UHGV virus genome: UHGV-1360762
DNA length: 25,018 nt
DNA from: a virus
Direction: 5' to 3' (one strand)
Positions 15,981-21,357 of the stretch are shown here, piece after piece; position 1 is the stretch's first letter; each line of letters opens with the position of its first letter. Both the position numbers and the translations under genes were made by a program. The notes under the pieces were generated by a model. That model had not been told where the DNA came from. It saw only the letters and a list, made by a program, of their open reading frames with translations, and searched no databases.

Positions 15981-16248
15981 AAGCAAAAAATGGCTTCAGG
16001 CAGTCAGGGATATTGAATTTTGCGTTCTTTGCGGAAGATACGGAGTTCAGGCCGCTCACAGAAATGAAGGGAAGGGGGTTGGGATTAAAGTAGATGATTG
16101 CCTTACTGCTGCGCTATGTGTTGATTGTCATTCAAGAATTGATAATGGGAGAGATATGAGCAGGGAAGAGCGAAGGGCTGAAATGGATCGGGCCATTGTG
16201 CTTACCCTTAAAAAATTGGTTAACAATGGGAGGGTGTTTGTCCAATGA
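15970..16248 (+). CDS. YbcO-like (DUF1364) zinc-binding nin-region protein
   Basis: Cys/His pattern C..CG…AH…ALC..CH..ID and location directly upstream of rusA, as in DLP12 ybcO-rusA. Confidence 0.6.
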   Translation: MMFRSKKWLQAVRDIEFCVLCGRYGVQAAHRNEGKGVGIKVDDCLTAALCVDCHSRIDNGRDMSREERRAEMDRAIVLTLKKLVNNGRVFVQ

Positions 16249-16607: not shown

Positions 16608-16792
16608 ACGCCACAATTCAAACGATACCAGAGCTTCTTATCCAGACACGAGGCAATCAGACCGAAGTGGCAAGGATGCTTTCCTGCGCAAGAGGAACAG
16701 TGCTCAAGTACAACCGAGACAGCAAAGGCGAGCGTCACGTAATAGTTAACGGCGTCCTGATGGTCAAACAAGGCAAGAGGGGAAGACGATGA
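16604..16792 (+). CDS. ninH: NinH-like DNA-binding protein
   Basis: TIPELLIQTRGNQTEVARMLSCARGTVLKYNRDSKGERHVIVNGVLMV resembles recalled lambda NinH. Confidence 0.8.
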   Translation: MNATIQTIPELLIQTRGNQTEVARMLSCARGTVLKYNRDSKGERHVIVNGVLMVKQGKRGRR

Positions 16793-17307
16793 GCATAAGA
16801 GAACTAAACCTCACCAAAGAGCAGCACGAGTGGCTGAATGGCTGGCTTGAACTGTGGGGCGCATGGGTTTATTCAGGTCGTCTGGAAAAGCGCATGAGCA
16901 GCGTAATAGCGAAGTTCATGGAGAGCGTAGAGCCGGGAAGAGTTATGACAAGGCCAATGTGCAATGATGATGATGGAATGTTGATTTCTCAGGTCGTCGA
17001 TTCCGTCATGTGCATTGACAAGAAAGCCTTTGGCATCCTCCTCAGCTACTACGCTCATGGTTCATCTAAGCGAGCAATTGCATCCTACTATCACGCGACT
17101 GCAAAGCCACGCAAGATGTGTGGACGTGGTGGCGAGGGATGGAGAAAACCTTCACTGGCAACCTGTAGAAACGAAATTGACGACATCCTGAAAGCGTCGT
17201 TATTTGTTTTGTACCAGCCAATGCAAAATGCTTTCAAAATGCGTAAACGTGTTGAGAAAGTTAAGCATGTTGCTGTTAAAAGCCTTGACATGCAATTATC
17301 CATTTAG
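16789..17307 (+). CDS. Q: Late gene antiterminator Q (phage-82-type Phage_antitermQ family)
   Basis: LELWGAW… and TRPMCNDDDGMLISQVV motifs resemble the ERWGAW / RPQCCDDD signatures of this family; followed directly by a promoter and short-leader terminator. Confidence 0.75.
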   Translation: MSIRELNLTKEQHEWLNGWLELWGAWVYSGRLEKRMSSVIAKFMESVEPGRVMTRPMCNDDDGMLISQVVDSVMCIDKKAFGILLSYYAHGSSKRAIASYYHATAKPRKMCGRGGEGWRKPSLATCRNEIDDILKASLFVLYQPMQNAFKMRKRVEKVKHVAVKSLDMQLSI

Positions 17308-17320
17308 CCATAATATTCAC
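17285..17320 (+). promoter_or_regulatory. pR' late promoter / qut region (-35 TTGACA 17285-17290, -10 CATAAT 17309-17314)
   Basis: Consensus -35 with 18-bp spacer to a near-consensus -10, overlapping the Q stop codon; terminator about 40 nt downstream. Confidence 0.6.
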
Positions 17321-17344
17321 ATATGCTGCTGCTTTTGCATTCAG

Positions 17345-17369
17345 CAACCATCACAAGCCCACCTCCTGT
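17345..17369 (+). terminator. tR'-like rho-independent terminator (AAGCCCAC CTCCT GTGGGCTT + TTTTT)
   Basis: Perfect 8-bp GC-rich stem, 5-nt loop and T-run immediately downstream of the putative pR'. Confidence 0.8.
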
Positions 17370-17501
17370 GGGCTTTTTTGCATTCGCGTGCAATCAAAAC
17401 AAGAGTCTTAGTGATATGGGCCTGAGATATGGTGGTGGAAACATCGCTCCGCTCTTGGCTGTCATATCTACGCGAACAGGCTCTATCCCTAAGGTAAAGC
17501 G

Positions 17502-18600: not shown

Positions 18601-18924
18601 ATGAAGATGCCAGAAAAACATGACCTGTTAGCCGCCATTCTCGCGGCAAAGGAACAAGGCATCGGGGCAATTCTTGCGTTTGCAATGGCGTACCTTCGCG
18701 GCAGATATAATGGCGGTGCGTTTACAAAAACAGTAATCGACGCAACGATGTGCGCCATTATCGCCTGGTTCATTCGTGACCTTCTCGACTTCGCCGGACT
18801 AAGTAGCAATCTCGCTTATATAACGAGCGTGTTCATCGGCTACATCGGTACTGACTCGATTGGTTCGCTTATCAAACGCTTCGCTGCTAAAAAAGCCGGA
18901 GTAGAAGATGGTGGAAATCAATAA
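18601..18924 (+). CDS. S: Holin S (class I, dual-start MKM), lambda-type
   Basis: Near-identical to recalled lambda S ([61 protein letters not shown]...); upstream leader also lambda-like. Confidence 0.96.
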
Positions 18925-19384
18925 TCAACGTAAGGCGTTCCTCGATATGCTGGCGTGGTCAGAGGGGACAGATAACGGACGACAGAAAACCAGAAATCAT
19001 GGTTATGACGTCATTGTTGGCGGAGAGCTATTCACTGATTACTCAGATCACCCTCGCAAACTTGTCACGCTAAACCCCAAACTCAAATCAACAGCCGCCG
19101 GACGCTACCAGCTTCTTTCCCGTTGGTGGGATGCCTACCGCAAGCAGCTTGGCCTGAAAGACTTCTCTCCGAAAAGCCAGGACGCTGTGGCATTGCAGCA
19201 GATTAAAGAGCGTGGCGCTTTACCGATGATTGACCGCGGTGATATCCGTCAGGCTATCGACCGTTGCAGCAATATCTGGGCTTCACTGCCGGGTGCTGGT
19301 TATGGTCAGTTCGAGCATAAGGCTGACAGCCTGATTGCAAAATTCAAAGAAGCTGGCGGAACGGTCAGAGAGATTGAGGTATGA
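18908..19384 (+). CDS. R: Endolysin R (lytic transglycosylase), lambda-type
   Basis: 158-aa protein matching recalled lambda R ([49 protein letters not shown]...). Confidence 0.95.
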
Positions 19385-19818
19385 GCAGAGTAACCGCGAT
19401 TATCTCCGCTCTGGTTATTTGCATCATCGTCTGTCTGTCATGGGCTGTTAATCATTACCGTGATAACGCCATCGCCTACAAAGCCCAGCGCGACAAAGCC
19501 ACATCCATCATCGCTGATATGCAGAAGCGTCAACGTGATGTAGCTGAACTCGATGCCAGATACACAAAGGAGCTTGCTGATGCTAACGCGACTATCGAAA
19601 GTCTCCGCGCTGATGTTTCTGCTGGGCGTAAGCGCCTGCAGGTCGCCGCCACCTGTGCAAAGTCAACGACCGGAGCCAGCGGCATGGGCGATGGAGAAAG
19701 CCCAAGACTTACAGCAGATGCTGAACTCAATTATTACCGTCTCCGAAGTGGAATCGACAGGATAACCGCGCAGGTTAACTACCTGCAGGAATACATCAGG
19801 ACGCAATGCCTTCGATGA
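19381..19818 (+). CDS. Rz: Spanin inner-membrane subunit Rz (N-terminus lambda-identical, C-terminal half diverged)
   Basis: [31 protein letters not shown] matches lambda Rz; the remainder is coiled-coil-like but differs from lambda. Confidence 0.88.
19553..19765 (+). CDS. Rz1: Spanin outer-membrane lipoprotein Rz1, embedded in the +1 frame of Rz
   Basis: Out-of-frame ORF inside Rz with signal peptide and lipobox (…[11 protein letters not shown]) followed by a proline-rich segment ([13 protein letters not shown]). Start may be the internal Met at 19580. Confidence 0.75.
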
Positions 19819-20196
19819 TAGCGATAATTTTACTCATCATCCTTCACATCTGGCTCTGTAGACAGGGTGGTGATCACTTCTGGAGTGAATCCAGATTAAA
19901 CATCTCATTGCTGATGCTTGATATTGAGCATCTGGCGCGCGGTAAGGGGCTGCGTTGAGATAAGAGCCAGTTCATTACAAAGCCTATCTACTGGTGGGCT
20001 TGATAATGAAACCGGAATTTATTCTGGGTAACCAGTTACGGCAGTACAGCGAAACAACCCAAGCCAGTAAGTGGGGAAATAACACTGGCAGCCACTGAAA
20101 GATGAACCTCCTGCCTTATGGCAAAAAAGATTCTTTGTGGTGGCGGACTGATGGAAAGACATCCTAATCAAGCAACCACTCTACAGGGTCATAATT

Positions 20197-20568
20197 ATGA
20201 ACGACCAGCAAATCGAAAAAGAAATCGTTGAGAAAGGCAAAACGGCACCGCGAGTTACGCCAGACCATATCGAAGGAATTATTGCTCAGGAGGCATATTT
20301 CACAGCAGAGGATGGTGCCTTTGGCAAAGCCATAAAAGCGAAACATACTGGCGGAGAGGTAAACTACCAGCCGCACGAATCACTTTCTCTGCTGACGTTC
20401 TGCGTCCTGGTGCTGCGCAACGGCTTCACCGTCACCGGAGAGAGTGCCTGTGCAAGTCCGGAAAATTTTGATGCAGAAATTGGTCGGAAGATTGCCCGGC
20501 AGAATGCTGTAAACAAAATCTGGATGCTCGAAGGTTACTTGCTGAAGCAGAAGCTAAGCGAACAGTAG
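20197..20568 (+). CDS. Gp49/Sf6-gp66-like phage protein (123 aa)
   Basis: Size and position between lysis genes and small terminase match the Sf6 gene 66 family; assignment from recalled family features, not verified. Confidence 0.55.
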   Translation: MNDQQIEKEIVEKGKTAPRVTPDHIEGIIAQEAYFTAEDGAFGKAIKAKHTGGEVNYQPHESLSLLTFCVLVLRNGFTVTGESACASPENFDAEIGRKIARQNAVNKIWMLEGYLLKQKLSEQ

Positions 20569-20671
20569 TTATTACAAAAGCCATTCCTTACTGAGTGGCT
20601 TTGATAATGGCTTATACCCTACACGGGATAACTTAACTGATATCCCTTTTAACGGATAAACGGAGCCAACA

Positions 20672-20914
20672 ATGGCAGAGATTATTCCCATGACTGAAGA
20701 ACAGAAATTCCAGTTAGAGATTTACAAACTGGTCATGAACCAGAACGCAGCCGCAGAAGAAGCATTTCAATTCATCGGCACTGACGAACTGAAGCTTGAG
20801 CTATTCAAAATTCACTTCCAGTCAGGCGGCGCTAATTCAGATATCACGACCCGCACTATCGAAGCGGTGCGTAAATCGAAGGAAGCGTTAGACCTGTTCA
20901 CTACCGGAGCATAA
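20672..20914 (+). CDS. Hypothetical protein (80 aa) upstream of small terminase
   Basis: ORF with GGAG RBS, immediately 5' of the terminase genes. Confidence 0.55.
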   Translation: MAEIIPMTEEQKFQLEIYKLVMNQNAAAEEAFQFIGTDELKLELFKIHFQSGGANSDITTRTIEAVRKSKEALDLFTTGA

Positions 20915-20916
20915 AC

Positions 20917-21357
20917 ATGGCACGCCCAACAAAGTATCAAGAGGCGTATGCCGAACAGGCACGCAAACTGTGCTTGCTGGGCTACACCGATGCAGAACTT
21001 GCTGATTTCTTTGAAGTCAGTGAGTCAACTATTAACAAGTGGAAGCTTGATTATCCTAAGTTTTCGGAGTCCATAAAAAAGGGTAAGGCCGTCGCTGATG
21101 CAGAAGTTAGTGATCGTCTTTATCAACGAGCTATGGGCTTCGTGGCTCCAGACATCGATATTCGTGTTATTGAAAACAGAATTGTCGAAACTCCGCTTGA
21201 GAAGTATTACCCGCCTGATACAACCGCTGCCATCTTCTGGCTTAAGAACCGACAGAAGGATAAATGGCGCGACAAGGTTGATCACGAGCTAACAGGCAAA
21301 GACGGCGGCGCAATCCAGATTGAAACATCACCGATGAGCACTCTATTCGGAAAATGA
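20917..21357 (+). CDS. Terminase small subunit (Sf6-like C-terminus, HTH N-terminus)
   Basis: N-terminal HTH-like ELADFFEVSESTINKWK; C-terminal …GKDGGAIQIETSPMSTLFGK typical of Sf6-type small terminases; ATGA overlap with the large subunit gene. Confidence 0.8.
   Translation: MARPTKYQEAYAEQARKLCLLGYTDAELADFFEVSESTINKWKLDYPKFSESIKKGKAVADAEVSDRLYQRAMGFVAPDIDIRVIENRIVETPLEKYYPPDTTAAIFWLKNRQKDKWRDKVDHELTGKDGGAIQIETSPMSTLFGK

Follow-up and report, generated by a model that had tools for sequence, protein, structure and literature searches.

A conserved sense-strand stem-loop marks, and probably mediates, cassette boundaries in the late operons of lambdoid phages

The origin of phage mosaic joints is the subject of an old and still open argument: they have been attributed either to homologous exchange at short conserved linkers or to illegitimate recombination combined with selection. 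The genome papers of phages HK620 and Sf6 reportedly describe boundary sequences (bsq), i.e., short conserved sequences at the junctions of unrelated modules, which were proposed to be foci of homologous exchange. In the polycistronic messenger RNAs of phages, RNase III processing and retroregulation hairpins (e.g., the R sites of T7 and sib of lambda) set the stability of the upstream message. The lambdoid boundary-sequence concept is cited in PMC3029335, and promoter-early stem-loop (PeSL) cassettes have been described for T4-type phages (Arbiol et al. 2010, PMC2839356; Comeau et al. 2014, PMC4122927). Here we analyze the virus genome UHGV-1360762 (25,018 nucleotides; the whole stretch is referred to as the window), in which two imperfect direct repeats of about 40 bp bracket a homologue of Sf6 gene 66 (gp66-like gene). 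A preliminary description regarded these repeats as substrates for inserting or excising single-gene cassettes or, alternatively, as repeated regulatory sites. The repeats (copies A and B) are paralogous and represent a conserved stem-loop of 42-46 nt with the signature CAUUA-CA-(9-10 bp stem plus loop)-GA-UAAUG. This hairpin family is widespread and previously unannotated; in lambdoid late operons, its members mark the boundaries of cassettes and probably mediate them as well.

The preliminary description had placed both repeats correctly to within about 3 nt, and its "roughly 80 percent" identity agrees with a global alignment of the copies (31 of 40 columns identical, 78%). Its spacing was also accurate: 186-189 nt separate the end of copy A from the ATG at 20197, and copy B begins at the gp66 stop codon, the extended stem of copy B overlapping the final two bases of this TAG (20566-20568). 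The best non-self local match to copy A on both strands of the window is copy B (score 34), whereas the top local scores in 20 shuffled windows were 20-26; on sequence alone, the similarity is real and modestly above chance. As the copies differ by indels, an ungapped repeat search detected the direct repeat only for the 15-nt 3' arm (D11). At 16139, TTGATAATG occurs a third time, by chance and outside any hairpin context. A covariance model based on 73 distinct copies of relatives and used to search the window for further copies found exactly these two in 25 kb (copy A, 19970-20011, plus strand, 64 bits, E 4.6e-16; copy B, 20567-20612, plus strand, 46.5 bits, E 5.2e-11), the next-best match having 12.9 bits on the minus strand. 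That the likeness of the two 40-mers is accidental could be argued from the many other two-copy families of similar length that the repeat search shows in the same 2.5 kb; in view of the E values of the covariance model, the local score above the null maximum and the presence of the same element in hundreds of phages and prophages, such an accident is extremely improbable.

Both copies are also inverted repeats (copy A, I20; copy B, I12), and this hairpin nature is absent from the preliminary description. They share a common architecture (Table 1). The lower stem (U)CAUUA/UAAUG(A) is separated by a 2x2 internal loop (CA/GA) from the upper stem, which comprises 9-10 pairs, starts AAGCC/GGCUU in both hairpins and ends with a variable tip. 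Three G.U pairs are found in the upper stem of hairpin A and two U.G pairs in the lower stem of hairpin B. The minimum free energy (MFE) of the RNA fold on the plus strand is -21.9 kcal/mol for hairpin A (z -5.9) and -20.4 kcal/mol for hairpin B (z -5.1). On the minus strand the RNA folds are weaker (-17.9 and -12.7 kcal/mol, respectively), because several pairs are G.U. The folds of the hairpins as single-stranded DNA (ssDNA) are weak (-7 to -8 kcal/mol), and the DNA fold of copy A has no strand bias.

Hairpins A and B represent subtypes A and B of the family. Two further subtypes, C and D, keep CAUUA-CA...GA-UAAUG, with the upper stem wholly replaced (upper part GAGRCCAUUC-AAU-GAGUGGUCUC in subtype C and GCAGGCAUUC-ACU-GAGUGCCUGU in subtype D). 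In a first pairing test with 73 distinct copies, to the free columns of which no pairing filter was applied, 94.9% of the cells were paired and seven pairs showed double-sided changes, with 25-50% in register-shifted controls. A wider test with 86 distinct copies of the four subtypes resulted in 95.3% paired cells (26-51% in register-shifted controls) and compensatory changes at 10 of the 16 pairs; the covariation score was 0.362 vs 0.191 in shuffles, with none of 500 reaching it. For example, the top pair of the lower stem is A-U in most copies, G.U in P22 and G-C in HK620/HK022. Furthermore, U.G pairs are present at three positions in 27, 23 and 69 of the 86 copies, whereas the mirror mismatches (G.U on the opposite strand) are almost absent; therefore, the fold is selected on the gene-sense strand. 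Every hairpin copy is oriented along its genes, and no locus with two copies has them on opposite strands. Thus, the stem-loops form a real family, and selection maintains their fold on the sense strand, most likely in the form of RNA. As the structure is conserved, strand-specific and accompanied by compensatory changes, the likeness of A and B reflects selection on structure and not just leftover homology.

In BLAST searches with 51-nt segments, hairpin A (a 36-44 nt element) was found in 145 phage records and hairpin B in 31. The former belong to P22-like, HK022/HK97-like, ES18, Stx, Enterobacter and Klebsiella phages; in Stx phages, the match is limited to the 36-nt hairpin, and the flanks are unmatched. 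A pattern scan of IMG/VR gave at least 120 loci, and subtype A is present in 1330 of 5426 complete E. coli genomes; each of these has 1-4 such sites, none of them covered by an annotated feature. The covariance model found two sites in the whole Sf6 genome and one in P22 (40308-40350), in both cases confined to this genome segment, and no site in the right-end 4.5 kb of lambda. The hairpins are intergenic and lie on the sense strand of the late operon, in the variable accessory segment between the lysis and terminase genes. They are unannotated in the curated records of P22, Sf6, HK620 and HK022; the sole annotation that we encountered is "terminator" for the subtype-B copy in phage Ayreon. 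An Rfam 15 scan with E values up to 10 gave no match over either hairpin, nor in seven related loci, and a literature search by arm sequences retrieved only unrelated primers. A weak Rfam match to STnc560 in Ayreon is driven by a terminator and belongs to the unrelated ydeI/ydeE chromosomal small RNA locus.

The position of the hairpin is tied to the gene in front of it. Among the 139 copies having a same-strand upstream open reading frame (ORF) of at least 40 aa, the CAUUA motif lies 1 nt past the stop codon in 53 cases and at most 14 nt past it in 101 (hairpin A starts 12-14 nt past the stop codon of the gene-65-like ORF). The upstream ORFs form 32 clusters, and the 1-nt spacing occurs in 13 of them, in nine exclusively. 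The downstream ORFs form 49 clusters, some of them spurious, and the gap to the next start codon varies from 16 to more than 300 nt. With this recurrent spacing after varied stops and the variable gap to the next start, the hairpin behaves as the 3' end of the preceding gene. The commonest downstream neighbour is the DUF2560 gene (downstream ORF cluster 0, 64 of 151), and Rha/KilA-N genes are frequent upstream neighbours. The repeat is not a conserved coding sequence in another frame, as the short ORFs starting at the hairpin ATG are not conserved. Indeed, coding from the ATG of GATAATG was rejected, since the frame stops after 3-30 codons and differs among Sf6, Emek, mEpX1 and the window. A promoter with ATTACA as -35 and GATAAT as -10 was rejected as well: the spacer is 22-26 nt and variable, and a promoter scan finds nothing at or next to the hairpins. 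Note that P22 orf25 (L128, NC_002371, 40329-40406) starts at an ATG within the P22 hairpin copy, and for this reason its status as a gene is doubtful.

At the hairpins, unrelated modules meet. The similarity of the flanks is lost 1-3 nt beyond the hairpin arms, and in 166 copies, 73 combinations of 41 classes of 5' flanks and 36 classes of 3' flanks were counted, with 13 four-gamete quartets. Three architectures are found upstream of the DUF2560 gene (A, B and C denote hairpins of the respective subtypes, X an upstream gene): X-A-DUF2560 in 23 loci, X-A-leader-C-DUF2560 in 24 loci, and X-A-leader-(gp66 or other)-B-DUF2560 in 18 loci. Phage phi2851 and locus L010 have the upstream gene (hkbL-like) and the downstream flank as in HK620, but a single hairpin, whereas HK620 has two hairpins and the leader. 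This single hairpin is a hybrid, its tip being of the A type and its 3' flank of the B/C type, as a crossover in the shared GAUAAUG arm would produce. Some junctions are inside the arms: in 17 loci, TTCATTACAAA stands between the end of the gene-65-like ORF and an unrelated terminator module. Such half hairpins with TTCATTACAAA precede a canonical terminator TACCAGGATTTAGCCTCGC..GGGGCTTTTTAT in L005 (Ayreon, 2440-2545), L022, L028 and L042, and in Ayreon a complete subtype-B hairpin follows directly after the half hairpin and the terminator. In L026, the half hairpin GCCATCACAAAA is followed by a different short leader and gp66. The flanks are combinatorially shuffled, and cassette indels in relatives, including that of leader plus gp66, begin and end in hairpins.

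The proposal that the boundary repeats are substrates for cassette exchange was therefore largely supported in kind, by presence/absence endpoints in the hairpins, shuffled flanks and junctions in the arms. As a whole it holds only in part, and its details had to be revised. The gp66-like gene is cargo between hairpins A and B, but the unit between the copies consists of the ~155-nt leader and gp66 and is not a single-gene cassette. Nor is gp66 present or absent exactly at the repeats, as the left edge of its insertion in comparison with HK620/HK022 lies directly after ...GACATC inside the leader. In one locus, L026, gp66 lies behind a half hairpin only. The alternative of repeated regulatory sites pointed in the right direction.

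We consider it probable that this conserved sense-strand stem-loop at gene ends serves as an RNA punctuation signal and that its arms act as micro-homology for exchange. The fold would act as RNA in the late transcript, and the punctuation hairpin may be a processing or stability site, possibly of the RNase III type or bound by a specific factor; sequence-specific recognition is suggested by the fact that the lower stem and the CA/GA loop are invariant while the upper stem is replaced wholesale. The 10-12 nt arms recurring at many gene ends would then provide the micro-homology for cassette exchange by phage or host recombinases, with ...GGTGGGCTTGATAATG/GCTTATACCC... as the predicted A/B hybrid junction (slash). 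Phage recombinases were reported to act on diverged or very short homology (PMC2327257). Several points weigh against this explanation. The RNA-level role is one that we infer, and ssDNA would accept the same G.T pairs as an RNA fold. The helix, in which 5-8 lower and 9-10 upper pairs are joined by the 2x2 loop, is equivalent to about 16-20 bp and is borderline or short for a classical RNase III substrate (about two turns of double-stranded RNA, in which an internal loop often marks the cleavage site). Most copies were gathered by patterns fixing the arms or, for subtypes C and D, needing at least six inner pairs; these filters thus build in part of the arm conservation and, for subtypes C and D, part of the pairing signal. 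The exact A/B deletion product with the 5' flank of the window was not observed in the sample of 166 copies. Finally, illegitimate recombination combined with selection for intact gene ends could lead to the same coincidence of boundaries, and the out-of-register half hairpins also fit illegitimate recombination.

If the hairpins were ordinary Rho-independent terminators bracketing a moron, they would stop non-antiterminated transcription in the lysogen and be read through by the Q-modified polymerase. The depositors of Ayreon annotated their copy in this way, morons of this region do carry terminators (e.g., P22 pid), and in subtypes A and B an A-tract and a GC core are present, with CUU(U)GAUAAU following the stem; the upper stems of the hairpins (9-10 pairs including 3-5 G-C) are G+C-rich as required, and a small GGGAUA/UAUCCC hairpin with UUUU is present after hairpin B. 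However, a consensus scan calls neither copy, the U run after the stem (at least 5 of 8) is lacking, and subtypes C and D end with ...GGUCUC GAUAAUG and ...CCUGU GAUAAUG, i.e., without a U tract. The GAUAAUG tail is conserved as one half of the lower stem and not for U-richness. Furthermore, in several loci a canonical terminator (GC stem plus T6) is located immediately 5' of the hairpin, which would therefore be redundant as a terminator, and as no sigma-70 promoter was found in the leader, the unit is unlike a self-contained moron. Intrinsic termination was thus rejected as the main function, and we regard this explanation as unlikely. The flank shuffling would equally be expected of boundary sequences acting purely at the DNA level, kept or spread only for homologous module exchange and having a fold without function; this concept is established for lambdoid phages, with such sequences annotated in Sf6 and discussed in PMC3029335. 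Yet exchange requires identity and not self-complementarity, and the unrelated upper stems of subtypes A-D still pair. The compensatory changes, the restriction of G.U pairs to one strand and the co-orientation of all copies with the genes likewise make a purely linking role very unlikely.

A functional fold may also act as DNA, either as an ssDNA hairpin for a nuclease or recombinase (similar to attC, REP or IS200/IS605 elements) or as a duplex operator for a dimeric protein, e.g., of the Rha/KilA-N type. Like attC, the element combines invariant arms with a variable centre and directly follows cassette ORFs on their 3' side; ssDNA tolerates G.T pairs, and a DNA fold is predicted on the plus strand. 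The frequent Rha/KilA-N genes upstream and the paired TATCCC..GGATAA palindromes at fixed offsets also speak for action as DNA. On the other hand, a search that was not systematic revealed neither an integron-type integrase nor an HUH enzyme or any other dedicated recombinase in the window and the loci, the R/L box consensus of attC is absent, the ssDNA folds are weak and, for copy A, without strand bias, and the arm spacing of 22-26 bp is awkwardly variable for a duplex operator. Taken together, DNA-level action appears quite improbable. We give little credence as well to the bolder idea that the hairpin is a cassette-end signal, whose CAUUA/UAAUG stem and CA/GA loop are read by a dedicated factor coupling the expression control of accessory genes to their exchange. 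Were it correct, this factor might act on the folded single strand as a recombination protein, or it might be a nuclease or an RNA-binding protein; the accessory genes concerned would be moron or anti-defence genes, and the system would represent a phage counterpart of integron attC or a modular sib-like retroregulator, together with the TATCCC..GGATAA palindromes and the leader RNA.

The window corresponds to the late region of a phage or prophage of the P22-like/lambdoid type, and its nearest records are Sf6, CUS-3, HK620 and their relatives. The features of this region are compiled in Table 1.

Table 1. Features of the late region of UHGV-1360762 and of the hairpin-flanked segment
Feature	Position	Strand	Description
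Q gene	16789-17307		phage-21-type
Late promoter and tR' terminator	17284-17380		downstream of the Q gene; promoter TTGACA-17-CATAAT; terminator AAGCCCACCUCCUGUGGGCUUUUUU
Holin	18601-18924
Endolysin	18908-19384
Rz	19381-19818		Pfam Phage_lysis
Gene-65-like ORF	19806-19958	+	50 aa; PHROG 11822, E 3.9e-38; Sf6 gene 65; upstream neighbour of hairpin A
Hairpin A	19971-20010 (extended stem)	+	subtype A; copy A = CATTACAAAGCCTATCTACTGGTGGGCTTGATAATG, 19973-20008; lower stem UUCAUUA/UAAUGAA, CA/GA loop, upper stem AAGCCUAUC/GGUGGGCUU, tip loop UACU
Leader cassette	20009-20163	+	~155 nt, non-coding, conserved; directly after hairpin A
gp66-like accessory gene	20197-20568	+	123 aa; PF13876 Phage_gp49_66, E 8.6e-35; homologue of Sf6 gene 66
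Hairpin B	20567-20611 (extended stem)	+	subtype B; copy B = TATTACAAAAGCCATTCCTTACTGAGTGGCTTTGATAATG, 20570-20609; lower stem AGUUAUUA/UAAUGGCU, CA/GA loop, upper stem AAAGCCAUUC/GAGUGGCUUU, tip loop CUUACU
Palindrome	20613-20631	+	TATACCC-N5-GGGATAA; after hairpin B
Palindrome	20641-20659	+	TATCCC-N7-GGATAA; after hairpin B
DUF2560 gene	20672-20914	+	P22 orf80 / HK620 hkbM; PF10834, E 1.1e-43
Small terminase	20917-21357
Large terminase	from 21354

The leader was found in 38 distinct, nearly invariant versions in phages of E. coli and Salmonella. Its A-run is polymorphic in length (5-7 A), which would disrupt any ORF, and in HK620/HK022-type genomes the leader is a stand-alone unit between hairpin A and a subtype-C hairpin. 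It is too conserved for covariation to be informative. Positions 20058-20093 show a weak match to the Rfam family Proteo-phage-1 (RF03044; 16.8 bits, E 2.6), with the motif GAAAUAACAC(U/C)GGCAGCC in common. The cassette may represent a non-coding RNA or a leader. On the other side of the gp66-like gene, the palindromes that follow hairpin B have fixed places: in 2.6 Mb of related loci, 141 of 164 matches lie at offsets +2/+3 and +30/+31 from a hairpin. The same offsets are found after about 70 other hairpins, and variants are present in other loci. The middle and last palindrome segments (GGGAUAA...UAUCCC), followed by UUUU, fold as a terminator-like hairpin (MFE). The four palindrome segments could constitute an attenuator or paired operators. 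Their likeness to DnaA boxes, a Fur box or a type I-E CRISPR repeat was noticed by eye, found no support from any tool and was dismissed; the Rfam scan of the window gave no match to a CRISPR-DR family.

Further observations concern the genes of this region. The stem of the tR' terminator is similar to the upper stem of hairpin A and gives a weak partial match to the covariance model (12.4 bits). The family of the gp66-like gene is PHROG 322, the function of which is unassigned. A homologue of the gp66/Gp49 family in phage Huey (PQ850609) is labelled "anti-CRISPR protein"; this label is unverified, and Pfam and PHROGs assign no function to the family. Some gp66 homologues (L069 and its relatives, downstream cluster 2) end with ...LLKQSLIESAKESSA in place of ...LLKQKLSEQ. 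The former tail matches the C-terminus of Sf6 gene 68 (hkbN-like), and TTGCTGAAGCAG is present in both gp66 and gene 68 (L001, 2730-2745 and 3225-3245). This shared sequence suggests that the L069-type tail may have originated from a 12-nt micro-homology deletion, in which hairpin B, DUF2560 and the start of gene 68 would have been lost. Free-standing homing-endonuclease genes of the HNH or GIY-YIG type were found among the cargo ~50-200 nt downstream of hairpins (L038, L040; epsilon34/g341c, vB_EcoP-611R6), and the conserved hairpin could be a widely shared landing site for such genes. In P22, the leftward, experimentally studied pid ORFan locus begins right after the 3' flank of the hairpin, and the delta-pid primer starts at that flank; the experimental study of this locus did not address the hairpin.

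The stem-loop is a candidate for a new structured RNA family missing from Rfam. It also provides a concrete and very common linker, carried by roughly one in four complete E. coli genomes and by four model phages (P22, Sf6, HK620 and HK022). Its defined structure, the natural hybrid and half-site junctions and the easily engineered phages make the question of mosaic joints directly testable. Furthermore, the hairpin marks a late-operon plug-in site for accessory cargo (e.g., gp66/Gp49-family genes, Rha/KilA-N genes, homing nucleases, the P22 pid locus) and is therefore helpful in annotation as well as in the search for new accessory or anti-defence genes.

How does this family compare with the known systems? 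With intrinsic terminators, the hairpins share a stable stem-loop after a stop codon, but they have no U tract, their conserved lower stem extends beyond the would-be release site, and canonical terminators can be found a few nt away. The similarity to integron attC sites is broader and includes imperfect inverted repeats 3' of the cassette ORF, conserved outer arms, a variable centre, unpaired positions in the stem and strand-specific folding; in both cases, a gene and a hairpin form the exchangeable unit. However, the hairpin arms are CCATTACA / TGATAATGG and lack the RYYYAAC/GTTRRRY core sites, attI is absent, integron integrase features are lacking from the annotations of the Sf6 and P22 genomes, and the hairpins sit in a phage late operon, where they are read most simply as RNA. 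The resemblance to attC is a functional analogy only. The T7 R sites and lambda sib are also two-tier stems with a small internal loop, located between or after genes of long phage transcripts; the hairpins described here have a shorter helix (about 16-19 bp with the internal loop counted) and an arm sequence far more conserved than that of known RNase III sites.

The PeSLs of T4-type phages are likewise repeated intergenic stem-loop motifs that start at the upstream stop codon, and G-T pairs are marked in their stems. They are concentrated in hyperplastic regions near ORFans, and recombination between them explains indels and replacements among close relatives; similarly, the hairpins are found at the borders of variable ORFs, and indels of relatives end in them. 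In contrast to PeSLs, which carry a strong sigma-70 early promoter, no such promoter was detected at or next to either hairpin, and whereas the stem-loop of PeSLs terminates transcription, the hairpins lack a U tract and belong to a Q-antiterminated late operon. Moreover, the conserved part is the base of the stem in the hairpins and the promoter boxes in PeSLs. Finally, the annotated boundary sequences bsq2-bsq7 of Sf6 coincide with no hairpin (bsq7, under a BLAST match, is located inside Rz and is unrelated to the hairpins), and the definition of bsq does not include the strand specificity and covariation seen here. Nevertheless, like bsq, the hairpins are conserved between phages with unrelated DNA on one or both sides, and the reticulate combinations of left and right modules across them are the behaviour predicted for lambdoid boundary sequences.

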